The position numbers and the translations under genes are program-made. DNA of 64,000 nt. It comes from an uncultured Chloroflexia bacterium. GTDB taxonomy: Bacteria > Chloroflexota > Limnocylindria > Limnocylindrales > CSP1-4. The first letter of the stretch is position 1; each line of letters begins with the position of its first letter. This document shows, piece by piece, positions 34,208 to 46,372 of the stretch. The stretch lies in NCBI GenBank assembly GCA_963828165.1, contig CAWHDR010000001.1:2016001-2080000 (forward strand). The letters are read 5' to 3'. The notes beneath the pieces were generated by a model, which saw only the letters and a list, made by a program, of their open reading frames with translations, was not told the origin of the DNA and did not search any database.

Positions 34208-34434
34208 CTGTGTCGGGACCTCGCTAGGTTGTGACCGGTCAGGGGTGCCGTGTCGTGCCGATATCGTCCGGGCGGCATGGGCCGAACGCGCCCGACAAGG
34301 GACACCAGCCGACCCGGACACTCGCCCTCGCCGCTGTGCCGTCGCTGGTCGACCCTCGCCTCGGCCGGATGACGTAGCTGCCTCGGCCGAGAGGCGATGC
34401 CCGCTCGTGGCGGACCCGTCGTATCCTCGCGCCG

Positions 34435-37400
34435 ATGGCCGCTCCCGCCCGTCCGCCCGGTCCGATCGAGCCTGTTCCTACCCCGACCGACCCCGACGGC
34501 GGGGCGGGCGGGATCCACGAGCTGCTGTCGGTCGCCGTCGAAGAGGCGGCCCGGCTCCTCGACGCCGACGGCGCGATGGTCTACCTCATCGACCCGGCCA
34601 CCGGGAACCTGCGTTTCGCGCACGACGCGGGCATCCGCAGCGAACGCAGCCGCGAATGGGTCCGCGGCCTCGAGCTGGCCCCCGGGACCGGGATGTTCGG
34701 GCGAGCGCTGGTCGAGCGTGCCATCGTGGTCACGAACGACTACCAGAACGACCCCTCGTTCCGCCATGCCACCCAGACCGACCGCGTCGTCGAGGACATC
34801 GGCATCCGCTCGATGGTGGTCGCGCCACTCGTTGCGGGCGACCAGGTGTTCGGGGCGATGGGCACCTTCTCCACGCGCGCGGAGGCCTTCGAGCAAGGCG
34901 CAGATCGCCCTCGTCCGCGCGCTGGCCGATCATGCGGCCGCCGCCATGGCGAACATCCGCCTGATCGAGGAACTCGACCGATCTCGGAAGGAGCTCGCGC
35001 AGCGGGCCGAGGTCGAGCGAACGCTGCGCGAGATCAACGCCCGCATCTCGGCCGCGGCGGATCTTTCGAGCGTGCTGCAGCTCGCCGTCGACGAGGCCGC
35101 CCGGCTGCTGGGGGCCGACGGCTCCCGGATCGACCTCGTCGATCCCGGGTCGGGGCTGCTCCGTTGGGCGTATGCGTCGGGCGAGGTCAAGCCGGTCGAC
35201 GAGGCCAGGTATATCGATCCCGAGGAGACTCCCGAGCAGGGCATCGCCGGCCAGGCGATGGCCCAGGCGCGGCCCATCTGGACGGGCGATTACACCGCCG
35301 ACGACGGCTTTCCGCACGGGACCGGCGGCGATGCGTACGTGGCCGAATTCGGCATCCATTCGGTCATGGCCGCGCCGCTGGTCGGGGAGGCCGGACCCTT
35401 CGGTGCCCTGTCGATCTTTTCCACGCGCACCGACGCGTGGCGAGACGCGGATGCCGGCCTGCTCGAGTCGATCGCCGCGCAGGCCGCCATCGCCATCACC
35501 CGGACCCAGCTCCTCGAAGAGCTCGACCGGTCCCGCGGCGCGCTCGCACGCCGGGCTGGGGCGGAACAGGCGCTGCGCGAGATCGCCGCGCGCATCACCG
35601 CGATGCGAGATCCGTCCGAGATCCTCCAGCAGGTCGTGGAGCTCGCGAGCCGCCTGGTCGGCGGACAGGGGGCCATCCTCGACATCCTGGAGCCGGGCAC
35701 CGACAAGCTGCGCTGGGCGTTCGATGACGGACTGCGGCGGCTTTTCAGCGACGAGGAACGCTCGAATCTGTGGATCTCGGTCGGGGAGGGCGCCACCGGG
35801 ATGGCGGTCGCCGAGGACCGCGTCGTGATCGCAGGCGACGACCTGGCCGCGCAGTTCCCGCCAAGCCCCGAGTCGACGCAGTTCTACGACCGGACCGGCT
35901 TCCGCTCGATGATCGCGGCGCCGATCACCGGGGAGCACGGCCCGCTCGGGGTCATCGAGGTCTATGCGGTCGTGGCGGACGCGTTCGACGGCGAGGATGC
36001 GGCGCTCATCCGGGCGCTCGCCGGGCAGGCGGCGATCGCGATCACCAATGCGCGGCTCATCGACGAGCTCGAACGGTCGCGCGAGGAGACGGCCCGGCGC
36101 GCCGACGCCGAGCGGACCCTCCGCGAGATCGCGGTCCGTGTCTCGTCGATCCTCGACCCCGATACGGTCCTGACCCGGATCGTCGCAGAATCCGCACGCC
36201 TTCTTGGCTCCGACGGTGCGCGGATCGACCTGTGGGACGAGGAGCTGGGCTCGCTGCGCTGGGCCTACGCCTCGGGCGACGCGATGTCCGAAGTGCCCGA
36301 ATGGGGGCGGACCGGTGGGCTCAAGCCGCGCCAGGCCGTGGCCGGCCTCGCCTTCGCCGAGCAGAAACCGATCATGACCCAGGACTACCTGGCCGACGAC
36401 CGGTTCGAGACCACGCCCGAGATCGAGGCGTTCGTGCGCAAGGCCGGCATCCGCGCCGTGATCGGCGTGCCGCTGACCGGTGAGGGCGACGCACCGCTCG
36501 GCGTGCTGTCGGTCGTGTCCCGCGAGCCCGGCGCCTACACCGCGACCGAGGTGGAGCTGCTGACCGCCCTCGCGACGCACGCGTCGATCGCGATCACGAA
36601 CGCGAACCTGATGGAGCAGCTCGCCCGCTCCCGCCAGGACATCGAGCGTCGCGCGGAGGCCGAGGCCAGCCTGCGCCAGATCGCGGCCCGGATCACGGCC
36701 CTGCGCGAGCCGGATGAGGTCCTCCAGCACGTCGTCGACGAGGCGCGACGCCTGTTGCGCGCCGACGGTGGCCTGATCGACCAGTACGACCCTGAGAGTG
36801 GCACGCTCCAGTGGGCCTACGACGCCGGACTCGAGCCCGACCAGCGCGAGGCGGTCAAGATGACCAACCTGCGCCTGGGCGAAGGCGTCTCAGGCAAGGC
36901 CGTGGCCGAGGCCCGGGTCATCCACGCCGGGGACTACCTGGCCGGCGATTTCCAGCACGACGCGCTGGCGGATTCGCTCGTCGAGCGGGCCGGTGTCCGT
37001 GACCTGATCGCGGCGCCGATCATCGGAGAAGCCGGCCCCCTGGGCGCGATCGAGGTGCTGAGCCGCCGGCCGAACGCGTTCGACGATCTCGACGCGGCCG
37101 TGCTCGGAAGCCTGGCCGAGCAGGCGGCCATCGCCATCACGAACGCCCGGCTGATCGACGAGCTGGAGCGGTCCCGACTGGCCCTCGCTCGCCGGGCCGA
37201 AACCGAGCGGTCGCTCCGGGACATCACGGCCCGGATCGCGGCGCTGACCGACCCGGATGAGGTCCTCGAGCGGGTCGTCGAGGACGCGAAGCGCCTGCTC
37301 GCGACGGACGGCGCGCACCTGACCCGCATGGCTCCCACCGGCACGTACCTCATCCCGGTCGTGGTGACCGGCGCCAGCGATGACGCGACGCGCGAGTGGC

Positions 37401-39949
37401 TGATGAGCAAGCGGTTCCCGCTTGGAGCGGGGATCAACGGCCTCGCCGCACAGGAGGGAACACCGGTCTGGACCTTCGACTACCTGGCGGACCCGCGCAT
37501 CCCGCACGAACCGGACGACGACTTCACGGCCGAGCGGCTGGGCCTGCGAGGCATGGCGTCGACGCCGTTGCGCGCGCCCGGTGGCGACGTCATCGGCACA
37601 CTCGCCATCTCGACGGCGGAGCCGCGCACCTTCGAGGCCGACGACCTGGACCTCCTCCAGGGCCTCGCGGATCAAGCGGCCATCGCCCTGACGAATTCGA
37701 ACCTCCTCGCCCGACTGACCCAGGAAGAGGCGCGTTTCCGGGGACTGGTCCAGACGACCCCGGACGTGATCTGGCACGCGGATGGGAACGGGACCTTCAC
37801 CTTCATGGCGGACTCGGCGGAGGCCCTCTTCGGCTGGCCGGTCGACGAGATCGTCGGGCAACACTTCGATTTCCTGACCGAACCGTCGTCGATGCCGGTC
37901 GCCCTCGAGGCGTACGGGGCCGTCGGGGCGGAGCCGGGCCGCGTCGAGCGGGTGCCGCTCATCCTGGTCCGTCGCGACGGGTCGAGATTCGCCGCGGAGG
38001 TCACCACCACGGGTGTCTTCGAGGACGGCGTCTGGGTCGGTGCGCAGGGCACGGTCCGGGACGTCAGCGAGCGGGAACGGCTCGAGCGCGAGCTGCGCCA
38101 ATCGGAGGAGCGCTACCGGTTCCTCGTCCAGAACGCTCCGGATCTCGTCTGGTCGATCGGACCGGACGCGCGCATCACGTTCCTGTCGGACGCCGTCGAG
38201 CGGCTGACCGGTTTCCGCCCGGAGGAGCTGCTCGGCGAGCATTTCGGGGCCATCGTCCATCCCTCGTCGCGCGACGTCGCCGAGATCGACTGGACCGCTG
38301 CGATGAACGCGCCGTCCCAGGAGGTCCGCGGGCGGATCAGCCTCCAGCACCGCGACGGGTCGGCGGTCCCGGCCGAGTTCATCGCCGTCGCCGCCCTCGG
38401 CGCTGACGGCGATTTCGCGGGAGCGAACGGGTCCGTCCGCGACATGCGCGAGCGCGACCGGCTCGAGCGCGAGCTGCGCGCATCCGAGGACCGCTACCGG
38501 ACTCTCGCCTCGTCGTCGCCGGACCTCGTGTTCGCCACGGACGCGGAGGGTCGGTACACGTTCCTGTCCGACCGGGCCCAGACGACGCTCGGCTGGGACC
38601 GCACGGCCGCACTCGGCCGTTCGTTCATGGCATACGTGGCTCCGGGCTTCGAGGCGGCCGCCGCCGCGAGCTACCAGGCCGTCCTGGCCGATCCCGAACA
38701 GGTCCATTCGGCGCGGGTGGATTTCCTCGACGGGTCGGGGCAACCGGTCCAGCTCGAGATCAACGTCGTCGGCAAGGTCGAGGACGGCGCGCTGGTCGGG
38801 ATCAACGGGGTCGCGCGTGACGTGTCGGAGCGGGAGCGGCTCGAGCGCGAGCTGATGCGGTCGGAGGAGCGCTATCGGTTCCTCGTGCAGAACTCGCCGG
38901 ACGTCGTCTTCGCGACGAACGTCGAGGGAAACTTCACCTTCATCTCGGCCGCCATCGAGCGGCTCACCGGCCATCCCGCGGCCCAGCTCATCGGGAAGCA
39001 TTTCGGGACGATCGTCGAGTCGGAGGACGCCCAGGTGGCGGGCGGCCGTTGGGAGGCGCTCTCCAGCCACCCGGACCAGGAGGTCCAGACCGCCCAGGTC
39101 CTGCGTGGTCGCGACGGCCGCCATACCCCGGTCGATGTCCGAGCGGTGGGCGTGTGGGTGGACGGGGCGTTCGCAGGCATCCAGGGCGCGGCGCGCGACG
39201 TGAGCGACCAGGTCCGACTGGAGCGGGAGCTACGACGCCAGGCCGGGGAGCTCGCCGCCGGCGAGGAGCGCGCCCACCTCGCACGGGAGCTGCACGATTC
39301 GGTCACCCAGGCGCTGTTCTCCATGACCCTCGTGGCGCGCTCGGTCGAGATGCTGCTGGAAACGGACCCGGACACCGCACGGACGCACCTGACCCAGCTG
39401 CGCGAGCTCCAACGGGAGGCGCTCGCGGAGATGCGCGCCCTCATCTTCGAGCTTCGGCCCGGCAACCTGGAGCAGGATGGCCTGGTCAGGGCGGTGAAGA
39501 CCCACAGCGCCGCGCTCCAGGGCCGGCTCGGGCTCCCGGTCGTCGTGGAGAGCGACCTGGAGGATCGACTGCCGCTGGCGGCCGAGGAGGTCCTGTACCG
39601 CATCGCCCAGGAGGCGCTGCACAACGTCGTGAAGCACGCGGCCGCCCGGCAGGTGCGCGTCGACATCCGCCAGCACGACGGCGGCATTCGGCTGCGGGTG
39701 AAGGACGACGGCAAGGGATTCGATCCGTCGACCGTGCCCGACGGCCACCTGGGGCTCGCGGGCATGCGGGCTCGGACCGAGCGGGTCGGCGGCACGTTCA
39801 CGTGCGTGAGCGAACCCGGGTCGGGGACCGCGATCGAGGTCACGCTCCCTCCGGCCGTGCTCGCGGACCTGCAGGCGGTGGCATCGGCCGGTGAGGTCGC
39901 GGGACGTCCCACCCCACCCGCGGGGACCCCCTCGATCCGCGACGGATGA
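34435..39949 (+). CDS. Giant cytoplasmic sensor histidine kinase (6 GAF + 4 PAS + HisKA_3 + HATPase); +1 frameshift near 34891
   Basis: First GAF lies in frame 34435 and continues in frame 34397 after TTC-G-AGC. EERAHLARELHDSVTQ H-box, QEALHNVVKHA, DDGKGF, GLAGM. TATCCT at 34422 supports the start. Confidence 0.9.
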
Positions 39950-40036: not shown

Positions 40037-40444
40037 ATGCCCCCCGCTGACGCCCGGTCCGACGAAGCTGCGCCGCTGCGCATCCTCGTCGTCGATGCCG
40101 ATGACCGGGTTCGCGAGAGCCTGACCGGGTTGCTCGCCATCGGCGAGCGGGTGCTCATCGTCGGCAGCTCCGGCCAGTCCGGAACGGCGCTCGCCCTGGC
40201 GCGCGAGCATCGACCCGACGTCGTGATCGTCGACCCGCGCCTGCCCGAGGTCGACGGTGGACTGAGCTTCATCGCCGGGGTCCGGCAATGGTGTCCGGAC
40301 ACGCGCATCCTCGCCATGAGCTGGTCCGACGCGCTCGAGCGCCAGGCCCTCGACGGCGGAGCCCACGGCTTCGTCCGCAAGACCTTCCGCCCCGCTGAGC
40401 TGATCGCCGCGATCCTCGCGGCCGGCCGGCCCGCCGATGCCTGA
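40037..40444 (+). CDS. Single-domain response regulator
   Basis: RILVVD, PDVVIVD, GFVRK receiver pattern; no output domain. Confidence 0.85.
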   Translation: MPPADARSDEAAPLRILVVDADDRVRESLTGLLAIGERVLIVGSSGQSGTALALAREHRPDVVIVDPRLPEVDGGLSFIAGVRQWCPDTRILAMSWSDALERQALDGGAHGFVRKTFRPAELIAAILAAGRPADA

Positions 40445-41189
40445 GGAGACCGCTTTGCTAGACTCGACGCTGTCCCCAACGTCCCCGCCAGACACCAGCG
40501 GCGCGAGTGCGCCGGGAGCCGACGTGACAGACGACGCCCCGATCCGTGTGCTCATCGTCGACGACCACGCGGTCGTCCGGACGGGTCTCAAGGTGTTCCT
40601 CGATCTCCAGACGGATATCGAGGTCGTCGGCGAGGCGGCAGATGGCTCCGAGGGCGTGGCGATGGCCCGCCGACTCCAGCCCGATGTCGTGCTGATGGAC
40701 CTGCTGATGCCGAACATGGACGGCATCACCGCGATCGGCCGGATCAAGGCCGAGCACCCCGAGATCGAGATCGTGACGATGACCTCCTTCATCGAAGAGG
40801 AGAAGGTGACCTCGGCCCTGGAGGCGGGAGCGTCGGGCTACGTCCTCAAGGACGCGGAGGCCGAGGAGGTCGCCGCGGCCGTGCGCGCGGCCCATGCGGG
40901 CGAAGTCCACCTCGACCCAGCGGTCGCGCGCCTGCTTGCCCAGCGGATGCGTGACCGCAAGTCCCCCAAGGACGAGCTGGCCGAGCCGTTGACCGATCGC
41001 GAGAAGGACGTGCTCCGCCTGCTGGGGCAGGGGATGTCCAACAAGGACATCGGCTCGACGCTGTTCATCACGGAGCGCACCGCCCGCACGTACGTCTCGA
41101 ACATCCTGGGCAAGCTCGGTCTCGCGTCACGGACGCAGGCGGCGCTGTACGCGGTGGAGCACAAGCTCGTCGACGCGCCCGGCGCCTGA
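40437..41189 (+). CDS. NarL/LuxR family response regulator
   Basis: VLIVDDH, DVVLMD, GYVLK, LTDREKDVL HTH. True start may be GTG 40524 (GGGAG RBS). Confidence 0.95.
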   Translation: MPEETALLDSTLSPTSPPDTSGASAPGADVTDDAPIRVLIVDDHAVVRTGLKVFLDLQTDIEVVGEAADGSEGVAMARRLQPDVVLMDLLMPNMDGITAIGRIKAEHPEIEIVTMTSFIEEEKVTSALEAGASGYVLKDAEAEEVAAAVRAAHAGEVHLDPAVARLLAQRMRDRKSPKDELAEPLTDREKDVLRLLGQGMSNKDIGSTLFITERTARTYVSNILGKLGLASRTQAALYAVEHKLVDAPGA

Positions 41190-41219: not shown

Positions 41220-42497
41220 CTATTCGACGGAGACGACCCGGTACGTGACCGCGCCCCGTGGCGTCTTGACTGCGACCTCGTCGCCCGCGACCGCGCCCAG
41301 TAGTGCCCGCCCGACCGGTGATGCCACCGACAGCCGCCCCGAGGATGGATCGGCCTCGGCCGTGCCCACCAAGGTGTACGTGTCGGTGTCGCCCTCGATC
41401 TCGACGACGATCCGGGAGCCCAGGTCCGCGCCGGCCCCGGCGGTCGGCGCCACGGCGATGACGGCCGAGCGCAACTGCGCCTCGATCGACTGGACGCGGC
41501 CTTCAAGGAACGACTGCTCCTCGCGCGCGGAGCTGTAGTCGGCATTCTCCTTGAGGTCGCCGAGCTCCTTGGCAGCCCGGATCCGGGCGATGACCTCGGG
41601 CCGCTTCACCCCGGTCAGCTCCGCCAGCTCCGCCCGCAGGCGCTCGGCTCCCTCCGCGGTCAGGGTCGCAGCCGGACCGCCGGGCGTGGCCGTCGGTGGG
41701 GCTTCCGGAGGGCGTGCCGCTCCGGGCGACGAGGGGCTCCCACCGCCTCCGGCGCGTGACGATGTCGGCGCGGGCGACCGCGACGGCGTGGCTCGCGGCG
41801 CACGCCGCCGTGGCTCCGGCGGCTCCCCTCGCGCCCCCTCCGCATCGCCGTCCGGGACGACCACGACCCTCGTCACCGGCGCTGCCGGTTCGACCGCCTC
41901 GGGTAGCAGCGACCCGGACAGGCCGCTCGTCTTGCGCTCGCCGGTCGGACGCCGCAGGTTCGCGAATGGCAGGACGACGTCGGGGTCCCGCAGGCCCGCG
42001 CGCTCGCTGGCGGTGACGGTCTCGGCGAAGGCCGCGAGCAGCGCGTCCTCGTATTCCTCCACGGCCTCGGTCGCGGCCCACCACACCCGGCATGACGGCA
42101 ACGCTCGCAAGGTCATGAGCCAGTGGCCGCCGGCGTATGGCCGTCGGTCTCCGAGCGTCGTCCGCGCCATGGCCGCCAGCCGACCGCTGATCGTCGCCCC
42201 GGTCGCGCCGACATAGAGCACGGTCTGGGACGGCAGCCAGAAGGAGGCGAGCCGGGCCGACAGGGCACGCGAGGTCGGCCTTGCGCCGTCGAGCAGGAGG
42301 CCAGGCACGTGCTCGAGCCATTTGCCGACACGCGTGAGCTCGATCGGGGCCGTCGGGAGTGGTGCCGGGAGCTCCACCAGGAAGACGCCCGGGGAACGGC
42401 CGGGCACCGGGCGCCCCCACGGCAGGGGCCCGTCGGGAAGCAGGCCGACCTTGCGCAGCAGGCTCGGCGCGGACAGCGCCTCGTCGTCGTCAGGCAT
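41220..42497 (-). CDS. greA: GIY-YIG-like domain fused to transcription elongation factor GreA
   Basis: C-terminal LTAEGAERL...GDLKENADY..AREEQ...LSVASPVGRALLG. N-terminal PGVF...LYVG...RL...E..LL...PFAN. Pro/Ser/Ala linker; single ORF. Confidence 0.85.
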   Translation of the reverse strand: MPDDDEALSAPSLLRKVGLLPDGPLPWGRPVPGRSPGVFLVELPAPLPTAPIELTRVGKWLEHVPGLLLDGARPTSRALSARLASFWLPSQTVLYVGATGATISGRLAAMARTTLGDRRPYAGGHWLMTLRALPSCRVWWAATEAVEEYEDALLAAFAETVTASERAGLRDPDVVLPFANLRRPTGERKTSGLSGSLLPEAVEPAAPVTRVVVVPDGDAEGARGEPPEPRRRAPRATPSRSPAPTSSRAGGGGSPSSPGAARPPEAPPTATPGGPAATLTAEGAERLRAELAELTGVKRPEVIARIRAAKELGDLKENADYSSAREEQSFLEGRVQSIEAQLRSAVIAVAPTAGAGADLGSRIVVEIEGDTDTYTLVGTAEADPSSGRLSVASPVGRALLGAVAGDEVAVKTPRGAVTYRVVSVE

Positions 42498-42543
42498 CCG
42501 GGGGATGGTACCCGTGACGGACTCGCGGTACCGTGCACTGCGC

Positions 42544-43932
42544 ATGGCTGCTGTTCGGCCGCGTCGGACGCGGGTCCGGCGCGCCCTCCTGATCCTCGCC
42601 ACCGTGACGGCGACGAGCGTCATCTCGATCGCACTCGGCCCGCTGCTGACCACTTCGCGGATCCCCGACCCGATCGCGGCCGCGCGGCCGTCGCCGTTGG
42701 CCGAACCGACGGCTCGCGCCGAGGTCGACCGTGGCGTCCGGCCGGCCAGTGCGAAACCCGCGAACCCGATCCCGGCACCACCCGTGGCGGCGCGCCCGGT
42801 CGTGGCAACCATCGGGGTCCGGCCGCCGGAGCTGGCCGGTCTCACGGCGACGGCCGCGACGCGCCGCGCCCTCCAGAAGCGTCTCGACCAGCTGCGCGAG
42901 CGGTATGGGGTCCCCGGGATCTCGGTCACGATGCTCTTCCCCGATGGCAGCTCGTGGGTCGGCGTGAGCGGCCTGGCGAACGTCGGGGCCAAGACGCCCG
43001 TGACCGCGTCCACGTCCTTCGCCATCGCGAGCATCAGCAAGACCTTCACCGCCGCCCTCGTCCTGGCCCTGGCGCAGGACGGGACGATCGACCTCGACGA
43101 GCCGGTGCGGACATACCTGCCCGAGGTGAAGGTCAATGCAAAGATCACGGTCCGCCAGCTGCTCGACCACACCAGCGGGCTGCGCGATTACTTCTTCCAT
43201 CCGGCGATCGACAAGAAGCTGTTGACGGATCGCAGCCGGGTCTGGGATACCGCCGACGCGATGAAGCACGTCGGCAAGGCGTACTTCAAGCCGGGCACCG
43301 GTTGGCACTATTCGAACACCAACTACCTCGTGCTCGGGATGCTCGCCGAGCGGGTCGGCGGGGCGCCCCTGGCGGATCAGGTCCGCGCCCGCTTCCTCGA
43401 GCCGCTGGGACTGCGACACACCTGGTATCAGCCCACCGAGGAGGCCAGCGCCGACGGCGCCCACGGCTACCGGTTCGATTCGACGTCGAAGGACGCTCCT
43501 GCCATCGACCTGTCCGATGGCAGCCCGTTCATGCCATTCACCTCCGTCGTCACCGCAGCGGCCGGCGCCGGAGCCTTCGCGTCCAACTCGACCGATCTCG
43601 TCCGCTGGGTCCGCGCGCTCTACGCCGGCGCGGTGCTGTCCCAGGCGTCGGTCGATGCGATGGTCGGCGACATCAGCCGAACCGCGCCGTACAAGCCCCG
43701 CGTGCCCTACGGTCTGGGCGTCCAGCGCCAGGACATCGACGGGTACCAGTCGCTCGGGCATTCCGGGCGGCTGCTCGGCTTTCGGTCGGTCGTCCGTTGG
43801 TTGCCGGACGAGGACGTTGCGATCGCCGTGGTGAGCAACCAGAGCCGGACCGATCCCGGGATCTTCGCGCGTGCCTTGCTCAGGACCGCCCGGGCCGCTG
43901 GCGCGTGCGTGAACTGCACCAGCCAGCGCTGA
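42544..43932 (+). CDS. Serine hydrolase, beta-lactamase / D-Ala-D-Ala carboxypeptidase family
   Basis: FAIASISK (SxxK), LLDHTSG, YSNTNY, GHSG; N-terminal TM or signal. Start uncertain. Confidence 0.9.
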   Translation: MAAVRPRRTRVRRALLILATVTATSVISIALGPLLTTSRIPDPIAAARPSPLAEPTARAEVDRGVRPASAKPANPIPAPPVAARPVVATIGVRPPELAGLTATAATRRALQKRLDQLRERYGVPGISVTMLFPDGSSWVGVSGLANVGAKTPVTASTSFAIASISKTFTAALVLALAQDGTIDLDEPVRTYLPEVKVNAKITVRQLLDHTSGLRDYFFHPAIDKKLLTDRSRVWDTADAMKHVGKAYFKPGTGWHYSNTNYLVLGMLAERVGGAPLADQVRARFLEPLGLRHTWYQPTEEASADGAHGYRFDSTSKDAPAIDLSDGSPFMPFTSVVTAAAGAGAFASNSTDLVRWVRALYAGAVLSQASVDAMVGDISRTAPYKPRVPYGLGVQRQDIDGYQSLGHSGRLLGFRSVVRWLPDEDVAIAVVSNQSRTDPGIFARALLRTARAAGACVNCTSQR

Positions 43933-44618: not shown

Positions 44619-45884
44619 CTAGCGTGAGCCGCCGGTGCCGGCCCCCGTGCGTCGGCGCACGGGCTTGCGATGCGCGTGGTGCTCTTGCGTCACGCGGGCA
44701 TGGCCGCTGCGCATGCCAAGGGGCCGTGGCTCCGTATCGCGATCCGGCACGAAGCCCTCGGCCACGGTCCACGGGATCGCATGCTTGAGCATCCGCTGCA
44801 CGCCGCGGAGCAGGTCGACCTCATCGATGCACACCAGGCTGATCGCCTCGCCCAGGGCGCCCGCGCGGCCGGTCCGGCCGATGCGGTGGATGTAGTCCTG
44901 CGGGTTCCAGGGCAGCTCGAAATTCACGACGACCGGCAGGTCCTCGATATCGAGGCCACGGGCGGCGACGTCCGTCGCGACGAGCACCCGGATGGCCCCG
45001 GTCTTGAAGCCTTCGAGCGCACGGGTCCGCTCCGGCTGCGACCGGTCGCTGTGGATGGCGACGGCGTCGATGCCTTCCCGGTCCAGGCGCGTCGCGAGCC
45101 GGGAGGCAGCGAGCTTCGTGCGGGTGAAGACCAGGACCTGGTGCAGGTCGCCTGACCGGATGAGATGGGCGAGGAGCGCCTCCTTGCGGTCGCGGTCCAC
45201 CGGATAGACGAGCTGGCGGATGCCCTCGACCGTGGTGTTGCGCGGCGCCACCTCGACCGTCTCGGGGTCGCGCAGGATCGTCCCGGACAGGCGCCGGATG
45301 TCGTCGGAGAAGGTCGCTGAGAACATGAGGTTCTGGCGACGCTTCGGGAGGAGCTCGATGATGCGCTGGATGTCCGGCAGGAAGCCCATGTCGAGCATCC
45401 GGTCGGCCTCGTCGAGGACCAGGATCTCGACCTGACCGAGGTTCGCGACCTTCTGTCCCACGAGGTCGAGCAGGCGACCCGGGGTCGCGACGAGGATCTC
45501 GACCCCCGCGCGCAGGGCCTTGATCTGCGGGTCCATGGGGATGCCGCCGTACACGACGGTCGAACGCAACGGCACGGTCCGGCCGTAGGTCCGGACGCTC
45601 TCATCGACCTGCATCGCGAGCTCGCGGGTCGGCACGAGGATGAGCGAGCGAACCGGGTGACGGGCCGGCGAGAACGACGTATTGGCCTGCGGCCGGAGTC
45701 GATCAAGGATCGGCAGCGTGAACGCCGCGGTCTTGCCGGTACCGGTCTGGGCCGCCGCGAGGACGTCACGGCCGGCGAGTACGAGGGGGATGGCGGCCGC
45801 CTGCACCGGTGTGGGTGTGGTGTAGCCCTCTTCGGTGACGGTCTTGAGTAGATCGGCCGACAGGCCGAGTGAGTCGAAGGTCAA
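44619..45884 (-). CDS. rhlE: DEAD-box RNA helicase (RhlE-like)
   Basis: PTPVQ, AQTGTGKT, PTRELA, DEAD, SAT, ARGLD, HRIGRTGR; TTG start with GGAG RBS. Confidence 0.93.
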   Translation of the reverse strand: MTFDSLGLSADLLKTVTEEGYTTPTPVQAAAIPLVLAGRDVLAAAQTGTGKTAAFTLPILDRLRPQANTSFSPARHPVRSLILVPTRELAMQVDESVRTYGRTVPLRSTVVYGGIPMDPQIKALRAGVEILVATPGRLLDLVGQKVANLGQVEILVLDEADRMLDMGFLPDIQRIIELLPKRRQNLMFSATFSDDIRRLSGTILRDPETVEVAPRNTTVEGIRQLVYPVDRDRKEALLAHLIRSGDLHQVLVFTRTKLAASRLATRLDREGIDAVAIHSDRSQPERTRALEGFKTGAIRVLVATDVAARGLDIEDLPVVVNFELPWNPQDYIHRIGRTGRAGALGEAISLVCIDEVDLLRGVQRMLKHAIPWTVAEGFVPDRDTEPRPLGMRSGHARVTQEHHAHRKPVRRRTGAGTGGSR

Positions 45885-46372
45885 GCGTGGCTCCTGCAGG
45901 GACCCTGGCCGTCGCGGGCGGGACTCCGCGGGAGCGCGACGGTGGCGTGGGACGGCGCGCCAGAACGCGGCCGCACGTGGCCCGCCCGGAGCATAGCCGA
46001 AATCGGTCGCATCGGGACTTCCCGGCTGTTGAAAAGCGGCCCGGTGCGCACCGGTACGACTGGTGCAATGACGGGGGCTTGCTTGCACTGGCATACTTTG
46101 GTCGCAGCCCCCCAGGCTTGCAGACACCAGACAGACAGGCATCAACCAAAGACTCGCCGCCCCAACGGCAGGACCCTGTCGATCACGTCGGGTGCTCTTC
46201 ACTCGACGGCCCGGTTCGGCTCACCCGGACCGGCTCAACCCTTCGCTCGCGCTCAGCGCGATCGATGGGCGTCCGTCGCTCGCGCGCTCGCGAACTTCCT
46301 GCCACACGGCGGCACCACCCCACCGTCACCGCGTCCCCCCACGCGGTGTTCTGGAAGAAGGAGGCAGGAATC

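Follow-up and report, generated by a model that had tools for sequence, protein, structure and literature searches.

The gene at positions 41220-42497 on the minus strand of the window, the 64,000-nucleotide stretch of DNA analyzed here, probably encodes a second Gre factor that carries a domesticated, largely non-catalytic binding module derived from a nuclease. The gene consists of 425 codons and a stop codon (41220-41222), and its product combines a GIY-YIG-derived domain, a linker and a GreA module. Coordinates and strands are positions in the window, residue numbers refer to the 425-aa product, and all parts of the gene described below lie on the minus strand.

The frame that ends at 41220 translates into 425 aa from the ATG at 42497, the single ORF already described from the sequence alone. 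The open frame itself reaches upstream as far as 43172, corresponding to 650 aa, and the start is placed at ATG 42497 by comparison with relatives. In one relative, a stop precedes the equivalent Met by 3 codons; most relatives start 5–10 residues ahead of a conserved A..LLR motif. In some public annotations the start is set 16 codons earlier (441 aa). A TACCAT hexamer (42505..42510), seen in the sequence 7 nt upstream of the ATG, is a possible candidate −10 element of a leaderless mRNA; in relatives, a similar TACCAC or TACCAT encodes a recurrent '..YH..M' directly ahead of the start. A consensus scan for promoters and terminators between 40900 and 43000 found no sites. Among public runs, we found no RNA dataset holding the gene, and the DNA runs that hold it reach a word share of at most 0.16. 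Judged by dN/dS against the closest relative, both the N-domain (0.098) and the Gre module (0.108) are under purifying selection.

Few regulators of the RNA polymerase (RNAP) secondary channel have been studied as thoroughly as the Gre factors, almost all of which are small two-domain proteins. The Asp and Glu of the Gre tip enter this channel and rescue backtracked complexes, and the catalytic role of the two acidic residues at the tip of the coiled coil is established for the family. Both Gre Pfam domains are matched in the Gre module of the window protein (residues 278-425). The N-terminal antiparallel coiled coil (PF03449; 41457..41663, residues 279-347) is found with E 3e-24 and 85.5 bits, the cut-off being 24.5, and forms two long helices in the model, 281-311 and 319-344. 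The C-terminal globular domain (PF01272; 41223..41426, residues 358-425) is found with E 6.7e-20 and 71.3 bits (cut-off 26.9). The tip, GDLKENADY (41535..41561, residues 313-321), contains the acidic pair D314/E317, and residues G313, D314, L315, E317, N318 and Y321 are invariant in an alignment of 35/35 fused homologues that share 44–84% identity with the window protein. The module scores above the curated cut-off of TIGR01462 (145.5 against 139 bits) and narrowly misses the equivalog NF001263 (143.9 against 145 bits). Sequence comparison thus bears out the complete C-terminal Gre factor with an intact tip that the sequence-only reading had described.

Of 8000 proteins scored, 1331 match the N-domain at E≤1e-3; both Gre domains are present in 114 of the 120 best matches. 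A count of genomes, suggested as a check on the earlier claim, places the fusion in 16/16 genomes of the family, which belongs to the Chloroflexota. In the domain tree, all 22 Gre-fused representatives belong to one clade of 42 rows (SH-aLRT 97); on this tree the Gre fusion arose once. In public annotation the fused proteins appear as plain 'GreA'.

An assembly or indel error that joined a nuclease-like gene to greA within the GC-rich linker would mimic such an architecture, and the low-complexity linker, with ~75% G+C, is a sequence type prone to indel errors. The sequence-only reading had itself pointed to this danger, and to relatives that might always encode two separate genes. However, the matches carrying both Gre domains come from many independent assemblies, and the linkers differ in length and sequence, yet are in frame in 35/35 aligned fused proteins. 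An independent public run (soil) provides a contig that covers 41512-42362, starting in the Gre module, crossing the entire linker and ending in the N-domain; it differs by 84 substitutions and contains 0 gaps. On this evidence, and with the fusion seen in 16/16 genomes of the family, we reject the artefact, whose probability is negligible. A full-text literature search found no paper describing a GreA/GIY-YIG fusion, consistent with the earlier impression that the architecture had not been characterized. Judged by title and abstract, none of the papers retrieved on Gre factors, N-terminal extensions and the secondary channel concerns such a fusion either.

GIY-YIG nucleases use the elements G(I/V)Y, YIG, R, E and N in that order. 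The N-terminal domain of the window protein (41883..42497, residues 1-205) is assigned to this fold by its model, which is of high confidence (pLDDT 96.2, pTM 0.91), and has no sequence match in Pfam or the PDB. Against Pfam at E≤10, the domain gave noise only and no GIY-YIG match; no match was obtained in the PDB by sequence, either with the single protein or with a profile, or in PHROGs and NCBIfam. The family is unnamed in public annotation, being absent from Pfam, NCBIfam and PHROGs.

A PDB-wide fold search with the model returned Z≥2 for only 12 of 48,161 chains, and the top 7 are GIY-YIG nucleases. The PDB titles name this class for the UvrC and Eco29kI matches; EndoII, PD-T4-3 and the plant Grx N-domain belong to it as well. 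The Z scores are 7.2 for T4 EndoII, 6.0 for UvrC-N, 5.7 for the plant Grx N-domain, 5.6 for I-TevI, 5.1 for Eco29kI, 4.2 for Hpy188I and 3.8 for PD-T4-3, all middling by the search tool's own scale. PMC1952068 describes I-TevI as a GIY-YIG nuclease, and the title of PMC2630997 does so for Hpy188I. Foldseek returned R.Eco29kI chains in all of its top 10 places, with weak E-values (0.16–0.5); against the PDB and viral models it found nothing at E≤0.001, the weak GIY-YIG rows coming first.

Traces of the same ancestry are present in the relatives. Among 38 N-domain relatives compared with Pfam, 6 match PF20815 (GIY_YIG_2, best E 0.003) and 4 match PF01541 (GIY-YIG, best E 0.014), all below threshold. 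Two non-fused relatives weakly match positions 21-80 of TIGR00194 (UvrC), scoring 16 bits where the cut-off is 285. The closest neighbors in the protein atlas are clusters of hypothetical proteins without a name, and GIY-YIG clusters appear only at ranks 22 and 26 with a score of 0.91, which serves as a lead only. The motifs noticed earlier all occur in the stated order: PGVF at 36-39, VLYVG at 93-97, R106-L107, YAGG at 121-124, YEDALL at 149-154 and PFAN at 177-180, with a helical insert of ~55 residues separating the GIY strand (37-42) from the YIG strand (93-99). A GIY-YIG-like fold, and descent from GIY-YIG nucleases, are therefore supported by a hit list that is exclusive to this class at the top and by the motif order, rather than by one strong score. 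The fold proposed by the sequence-only reading is upheld, and the domain without a GIY-YIG fold that it had named as the opposite outcome is not what the search found.

The non-fused relatives of the N-domain occur in two forms, a ~200-aa stand-alone protein and a ~320-aa protein with another C-terminal extension. They share 35–45% identity with the window domain across its whole length, as well as the motif order, and differ from it in being scattered across many phyla. Some reside in prophages, and four are located between phage terminase and portal genes. No Gre gene was found in the fetched flanks of 50 non-Gre loci (0/50). The extension of the ~320-aa relatives (QRVTAADL..G.IRIP) suggested a B3/EcoRII-N-like DNA-binding domain, a candidate that we dropped: a Pfam search returned no family for it, a PDB profile search gave only a chance match (E 2.2), and we leave the extension unassigned.

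The canonical catalytic residues Y-Y-R-E-N are all present in 50/50 representatives outside the clade, against 5/42 across the clade and 3/22 of its Gre-fused representatives, which are mutually related, so that counts such as 3/22 do not represent independent events. In the window protein, the GIY motif reads G37-V38-F39 (42381..42389), with Phe replacing the first catalytic Tyr. Among the 21 fused representatives this column reads F11/Y8/L1/V1; among the short non-fused ones it is Tyr in 32/33. The YIG motif, Y95-V96-G97 (42207..42215), retains its Tyr, which is kept in 13/21 fused representatives and replaced in 8/21. The conserved GIY-YIG arginine, R106 (42180..42182), is invariant in one alignment of the N-domain with its relatives, and the fused representatives contain R in 19 and K in 2 of 21. 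The ancestral metal-binding Glu, E150, is kept in 15/21 and lost in 6/21. It lies in the E147-E148-Y149-E150-D151 helix (42045..42059), where it is flanked by an acidic signature that only the fused clade shows: E148, Y149 and D151 are each found in at least 18/21 fused representatives and are variable in the non-fused ones. The GIY-YIG asparagine of the PFAN motif, N180 (41958..41960), is N in 14/21 fused representatives (replaced in 7/21), compared with 31/33 short non-fused ones.

Further changes surround these sites. Ten positions are near-invariant outside the clade, and a median of 5 of them are changed in the fused representatives against 0 outside. The window copy has changed five (F39, A111, Y121, M128 and S191), the last four in place of the family-invariant Y111, H121, K128 and H191. 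The sequence-only reading had suspected weakened catalysis from the Phe at the first Tyr; F39 is as described, and the loss is larger than stated. In R.Eco29kI, the active-site residues listed in PMC1952068 are Y49, Y76, R104, H108, E142 and N154, and the Y49A mutation of the first Tyr reduces cleavage to 0% with DNA binding retained. Y49F, the equivalent of the substitution in the window, is called an 'inactive variant' in the title of PDB 3nic.

Across the Gre-fused clade, the alignments indicate that constraint on the catalytic residues is relaxed. The clade instead fixes a different, more acidic and putatively surface-located set of residues, D22/E42/R137/W139/T143/EEY-D. In its signature, D22, E42, R137, W139, T143, E147, E148, Y149 and D151 are near-invariant, and the median net charge of the N-domain is 0 (pI 6.7) in the clade compared with +3 (pI 9.1) outside.

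It is unlikely, though conceivable, that the domain is an active tethered nuclease: anchored by the Gre module to backtracked RNAP, it would introduce nicks into nearby DNA or cleave RNA or R-loops, with a role in transcription-coupled incision or defense. The fold is that of GIY-YIG nucleases, the prophage and restriction-like contexts of the non-fused relatives are typical of active nucleases, and the length of the linker should let the domain reach DNA in the vicinity of RNAP. The window copy retains 4/5 canonical residues (Y95, R106, E150 and N180) together with H125, so that weak or altered catalysis is possible, and since three fused representatives keep all five residues, some lineages may still cut. 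However, the first Tyr is lost in the window copy, with the family-invariant residues listed above, and the fused domain is less basic than its non-fused relatives. Replacement of E150, N180 and the YIG Tyr within the fused group makes a conserved catalytic role unlikely. The same genome also encodes a full UvrC (575 bits) and Mfd (925 bits), leaving no repair gap to fill.

A version of this idea in which the domain is still an enzyme with a rearranged site, composed of Y95, R106, H125, E150 and N180 with E147, E148 and D151, and is carried by Gre onto backtracked RNAP to make nicks in DNA or cleave RNA or an R-loop, appears quite improbable. If true, it would physically connect stalled transcription to the cleavage of nucleic acids in a new way that does not depend on Mfd, across a whole Chloroflexota family. 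Because much of the cutting site is lost, the N-domain is probably a binding module rather than a nuclease; a binding or adaptor role fits it better than nucleolysis, with weak residual activity possible. Of the earlier proposal that the fusion delivers a nuclease or a nucleic-acid-binding module to RNAP, the active nuclease is disfavored by the residue counts and the binding role is the part that fits.

The genome contains a separate, canonical GreA of 154 aa, with which the Gre module shares 47% identity without gaps, and at least 2 Gre matches occur in 35/41 genomes of the family. A co-existing stand-alone greA, another point raised for checking, is therefore present. Given the canonical GreA, UvrC and Mfd, the fusion does not replace housekeeping functions.

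A DEAD-box RNA helicase gene (44619..46202, minus strand; Pfam DEAD 3.2e-47, Helicase_C 5.4e-31) is a conserved, co-directional upstream neighbor of the fusion gene in related genomes. It is possible that the pseudo-nuclease domain is an adaptor that binds this helicase, bringing it to stalled RNAP or bringing Gre to the RNA substrates of the helicase. In the 26 fused loci for which the upstream flank measures 2 kb or more, the orthologous helicase is upstream and co-directional in 19 and adjacent, within 600 nt, in 11, and its conserved, His/Arg/Lys-rich C-terminal tail could fit a putative acidic surface of the N-domain. However, 7/26 loci have no helicase inside the fetched flank, and in the genus of the window two unrelated genes, both on the plus strand in the window itself, are inserted between the pair. 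As all these loci belong to a single bacterial class, common descent may be enough to explain the gene order. The predicted complex of the N-domain with the neighboring helicase obtained a score of 0.01 (mark 0.32), which weighs neither for nor against the pairing. We regard the helicase adaptor as very doubtful.

The two folded parts are connected by the linker (41667..41882, residues 206-277), which is rich in Pro, Ser, Ala, Gly and Arg, has a net charge of +3 and is predicted to be disordered, in keeping with the Pro/Ser/Ala linker noticed earlier. In the full-length model, pLDDT falls below 50 at residues 217-224 and 230-274. The alignment of fused proteins reveals a semi-conserved linker motif, TRVVVVPDGDAEGARGEPP (41817-41873, residues 209-227), which is not confidently ordered in the full-length model, and the N-domain and the Gre module show no confident packing against each other (pTM 0.52).

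In the model we favor, the gene product is a second Gre factor that is specific to the lineage and consists of three parts, an N-module, a linker and GreA. By analogy with its family, the Gre module would dock on RNAP, extend through the secondary channel to the active site and promote the cleavage of backtracked RNA. The N-module may derive from a single capture out of a nuclease family with the GIY-YIG fold, whose other members stand alone or carry different C-terminal extensions, some of them in prophages. Once fused, the domain would have come under relaxed catalytic constraint and gained a new invariant, more acidic surface, with selection on the domain as a whole still purifying. Tethered to the Gre module by a flexible, basic linker of ~70 residues, this largely non-catalytic pseudo-nuclease would bind a nucleic-acid feature or a protein partner near the stalled polymerase, and ligand binding would target or regulate the Gre module.

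A whole bacterial family thus keeps a normal GreA and a second GreA bearing a folded, nuclease-derived domain. As this domain is under strong purifying selection, something beyond transcript cleavage may be brought to, or controlled at, the stalled polymerase, and the ligand of the N-domain would reveal possible ways of targeting or regulating Gre activity. The protein may also exemplify how a nuclease from a mobile element becomes domesticated, here as a probable pseudo-enzyme, through one capture, loss of catalytic constraint and acquisition of a new conserved surface.

Compared with canonical GreA (PF03449 and PF01272; TIGR01462), the C-terminal 148 residues of the window protein have the same length, both domains and the tip D..E, while a folded N-terminal domain of 205 aa and a linker of ~70 aa are added. 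NF004969, a 'transcript cleavage factor/unknown domain fusion protein' of 718 positions, and NF011309 (906 positions) likewise describe long proteins with a C-terminal Gre. They match the window protein in the Gre part only, at model positions 570-704 and 758-900, with scores of 44 and 75 bits, far below their cut-offs of 697 and 714. Since their N-terminal parts are unmatched, the fusion described here is independent of theirs and involves another N-domain.

The N-domain shares its fold (Z 7.2–4.2) and the order GIY, YIG, R, E, N with T4 EndoII, the UvrC N-domain, I-TevI, R.Eco29kI and R.Hpy188I, and R.Eco29kI also contains an insertion between the two Tyr motifs. It differs from the solved GIY-YIG nucleases in its lack of a Pfam or PDB sequence match, in the ~55 residues between GIY and YIG, and in the Phe at the first Tyr and the loss of further family-invariant residues. 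UvrC and Cho combine GIY-YIG with UvrBC-interaction, RNase H-like and HhH domains, whereas the window N-domain has no NCBIfam match and does not reach the TIGR00194 cut-off. Its partner is a transcription factor, not a DNA-binding or repair module.

A single gene of the window (41220-42497, - strand) encodes an intact Gre module (residues 278-425), joined by a linker (206-277) to an N-terminal domain of predicted GIY-YIG fold (N-domain, residues 1-205). The open frame on the - strand spans 43172 to 41220, and translation from the ATG at 42497 yields a protein of 425 aa (P0001). All motifs quoted in a sequence-only reading of the DNA are found in it, in the order claimed. Public calls differ, with some records starting 16 codons earlier (P0002, 441 aa). 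Comparison with relatives favours the start at 42497: most homologues begin 5–10 residues ahead of a conserved A..LLR, and the related locus L008 has a stop codon three codons ahead of the corresponding Met. The hexamer TACCAT, located 7 nt before the ATG on the - strand, could serve as the -10 element of a leaderless mRNA; in relatives a comparable hexamer, TACCAC or TACCAT, again precedes the start. A consensus promoter scan around the gene returned no site. For the 16 codons ahead of the ATG (42498-42545, - strand, in the window), the related locus L004 and several public gene calls show the pattern M-R-x-A-R-Y ... G-T-I-P, and more distant relatives have '..YH..M' directly ahead of the start. 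What is conserved here is probably a DNA element, TACCAT/TACCAC, located ~7 nt ahead of the start, and not coding sequence.

The C-terminal part had been read as an intact GreA, and the profiles agree. Pfam detects PF03449 (residues 279-347, E 3e-24) and PF01272 (residues 358-425, E 6.7e-20). The fusion protein scores 145.5 bits against NCBIfam TIGR01462 (cut-off 139) and lies one bit under the cut-off of the equivalog NF001263. Across 35 aligned fused proteins, 44–84% identical to the window's protein, the tip residues G313, D314, L315, E317, N318 and Y321 never vary. By every sequence criterion the module is expected to be a working Gre factor, and it would dock in the secondary channel. The question whether a stand-alone greA exists beside the fusion can be answered: a separate 154-aa GreA, 47% identical to the Gre module with zero gaps, is encoded elsewhere in the same genome.

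Several observations exclude that the fusion is an artefact, such as the indel considered in the sequence-only reading. An independent public run yielded a contig of 851 nt that aligns gap-free, with 84 substitutions, to 41512-42362, a stretch reaching from Gre across the linker to the N-domain. Both Gre domains are present in 114 of the 120 best N-domain matches, one in two, and none in four, which are at most 309 aa long (two are labelled partial); source names of the best matches are Chloroflexota and Candidatus Limnocylindrales. Within the genus, 19 of 24 genomes have the N-domain (the other five are 59–77% complete); within the family, it occurs in 16/16 genomes with completeness of at least 80%, from eight genera. 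A phylum sample gave matches in 22 of 301 genomes, four of them only weak, and a sister family whose genomes measure 1.1 Mb gave none in 16. A Gre match is present in all 41 family genomes, 35 of which have at least two, typically one short and one long open frame. The fusion has a single origin: a tree built from 92 representatives of the domain places every one of the 22 Gre-fused rows in one 42-row clade (SH-aLRT 97), whose other 20 rows are for the most part short or truncated gene calls. Both domains are under purifying selection; measured against the closest relative, L004, dN/dS is 0.098 in the N-domain and 0.108 in Gre, with 0.057 in the linker. The fusion is genuine and of long standing, and it extends across the lineage. 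A few family genomes carry a second N-domain match (G284:C1:673295-673813, G236:C13:35043-35576 and G004:C141:4602-4964; two with an internal stop), which may represent extra or decaying copies.

For residues 1-200, Pfam, NCBIfam and PHROGs gave no match, nor did the PDB, whether queried with the single sequence or with a profile. Among 1.84 billion cluster representatives searched, 879 were related at E<=1e-3, many of them ~200-aa stand-alone proteins. The N-domain model, predicted from a 38-sequence alignment, has a pLDDT of 96.2 and a pTM of 0.91. Ten R.Eco29kI chains lead the Foldseek list against PDB, weakly (E 0.16–0.5). In a fold search of 48,161 PDB representatives only 12 chains reached Z>=2, led by T4 EndoII (Z 7.2, 106 aligned residues, rmsd 2.8), the UvrC N-domain (Z 6.0), a plant glutaredoxin N-domain (Z 5.7), I-TevI (Z 5.6), R.Eco29kI (Z 5.1), R.Hpy188I (Z 4.2) and PD-T4-3 (Z 3.8), values that are middling by the tool's own warning. 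These first seven are GIY-YIG proteins, including three that we take to belong to the class (T4 EndoII, the glutaredoxin N-domain and PD-T4-3). UvrC and Eco29kI are so named in PDB entry titles, Hpy188I in a paper's title and I-TevI in PMC1952068. Since the match list is exclusive and the motif order of the N-domain (G-V-[YF] ... Y-[IV]-G ... R ... E ... N) is consistent with it, we assign the model to the GIY-YIG fold despite the middling Z values, as the sequence-only reading had suggested; its family is not represented in Pfam, NCBIfam or PHROGs. Pfam GIY_YIG_2 is matched by 6 and GIY-YIG by 4 of 38 relatives at sub-threshold E values, and two relatives weakly match the UvrC N-terminus in NCBIfam. 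An unusual, mostly helical insert of ~55 residues separates the GIY strand (37-42) from the YIG strand (93-99).

Relatives without Gre are spread over Bacillota, Actinomycetota, Bacteroidota, Pseudomonadota and other phyla, and no Gre gene was found in the flanks of 50 non-Gre loci. Three adjoin helicase genes; the one tested with Pfam, at L095, neighbours a PLD-helicase gene. Four have phage neighbours, a terminase gene on one side and a portal gene on the other. These are ~200-aa stand-alone proteins with an intact catalytic signature (L027 911-1516, L028 6001-6606, L030 6001-6609, L031 6001-6606), flanked by terminase large-subunit-like and portal-like genes, then protease- and capsid-like genes (neighbours named by eye). 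Such a position is typical of mobile endonucleases, and the contexts of these relatives would fit descent from an active mobile nuclease. Relatives of ~320 aa (P0268, P0257, P0262, L067 6001-7017, L095 6001-6960 and others; alignment A4) are extended at the C-terminus by ~100 conserved residues that include the motif QRVTxxD..G.IRxP...K.LFP. This extension matches no Pfam family or PDB sequence and may resemble B3/EcoRII-N DNA-binding domains. In some family members another small conserved segment ..A..L...GLL.D...RPG.PLR.LLR.G.I.. is joined C-terminally in L076 6001-6861 and L081 547-1515 and N-terminally in the proteins P0186 and P0202; the L076 segment has no Pfam family.

Conservation of the catalytic residues is relaxed in the fused clade. 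Representatives inside and outside the Gre clade were compared, the groups being set by the tree and the presence of the Gre tip, independently of catalytic residues. The counts are not independent events, because the rows are related to one another: Y39, Y95, R106, E150 and N180 are all kept in 50/50 rows outside the clade, 3/22 Gre-fused rows and 5/42 rows of the whole clade. With Y111, H121, K128, K189 and H191 added, all ten family-invariant positions are kept in 34/50, 0/22 and 1/42, respectively, and the median number changed is 0, 5 and 5. Among 21 fused representatives, position 39 is F11, Y8, L1, V1; position 95 is Y13, F6, L2; position 150 is E15, A4, L1, Q1; and position 180 is N14, V5, T2. 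The window reads F-Y-R-A-Y-M-E-N-K-S at the ten positions. Phe in place of the first Tyr had suggested a weakened domain; F39 is indeed seen, and four more of the ten are changed. According to PMC1952068, R.Eco29kI Y49, equivalent to this first Tyr (I-TevI Y6), gives 0% cleavage when mutated to Ala while DNA binding is kept, and the title of PDB 3nic reads 'inactive variant Y49F'. An active nuclease is therefore unlikely given how rarely Y-Y-R-E-N is complete in fused proteins, although the reading keeps some weight because the window's copy has four of the five canonical residues. The N-domain has probably lost its cleavage activity or retains only a weak one.

The fused clade has also gained a nearly invariant signature, D22, E42, R137, W139, T143, E147, E148, Y149 and D151, variable outside the clade. 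Three of these residues share a helix with the ancestral metal-binding Glu, which they flank, and are better conserved than the Glu itself. The median net charge of the N-domain is 0 (pI 6.7) in the clade versus +3 (pI 9.1) outside; the window's N-domain has -1 (pI 6.15). The fusion would combine a Gre factor with a GIY-YIG-derived pseudo-nuclease, which would serve as a flexibly tethered binding module. Many, not all, fused proteins share a semi-conserved linker motif, T-R-V-V-x-x-P-D-G-D-A-E-G-A-R-G-E-P-P (41817-41873, - strand), not confidently ordered in the model; D-P-T-R-R-T-G-V-L-R-S replaces it in another subclade.

A LuxR-type response regulator (40437-41189, + strand) converges on the fusion gene and a beta-lactamase-family gene (42322-43932, + strand) diverges from it (both Pfam); both neighbours are kept within the genus. 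The regulator follows a receiver-only one (40037-40444, + strand; Pfam) and an 1850-aa ORF (34397-39949, + strand) with, by eye, many repeated sensor-like segments and a histidine-kinase-like C-terminal end. Synteny is the basis of a further, less likely reading, a helicase adaptor: among the 26 more distant fused loci for which 2 kb or more of upstream sequence is available, 19 have a DEAD-box helicase orthologue upstream on the same strand, 11 of them within 600 nt. In the window the beta-lactamase-family gene and a 197-aa ORF now lie between the helicase gene (44619-46202, - strand) and the fusion, and the arrangement may be inherited gene order only. A His/Arg/Lys-rich C-terminal tail is conserved in the helicase (44622-44700, - strand) and its orthologues at L043-L103: the window has EHHAHRKPVRR, whereas relatives show EHGHAHRKP[IL]R or HHAHHKPIR. 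Full UvrC and Mfd are encoded elsewhere in the genome.

Literature searches of open-access article texts returned no paper on a Gre–GIY-YIG fusion, and public annotation names the fused proteins GreA. Other long Gre fusions are known as NCBIfam NF004969 and NF011309, but their N-terminal parts differ from the pseudo-nuclease proposed here and do not match this N-domain.
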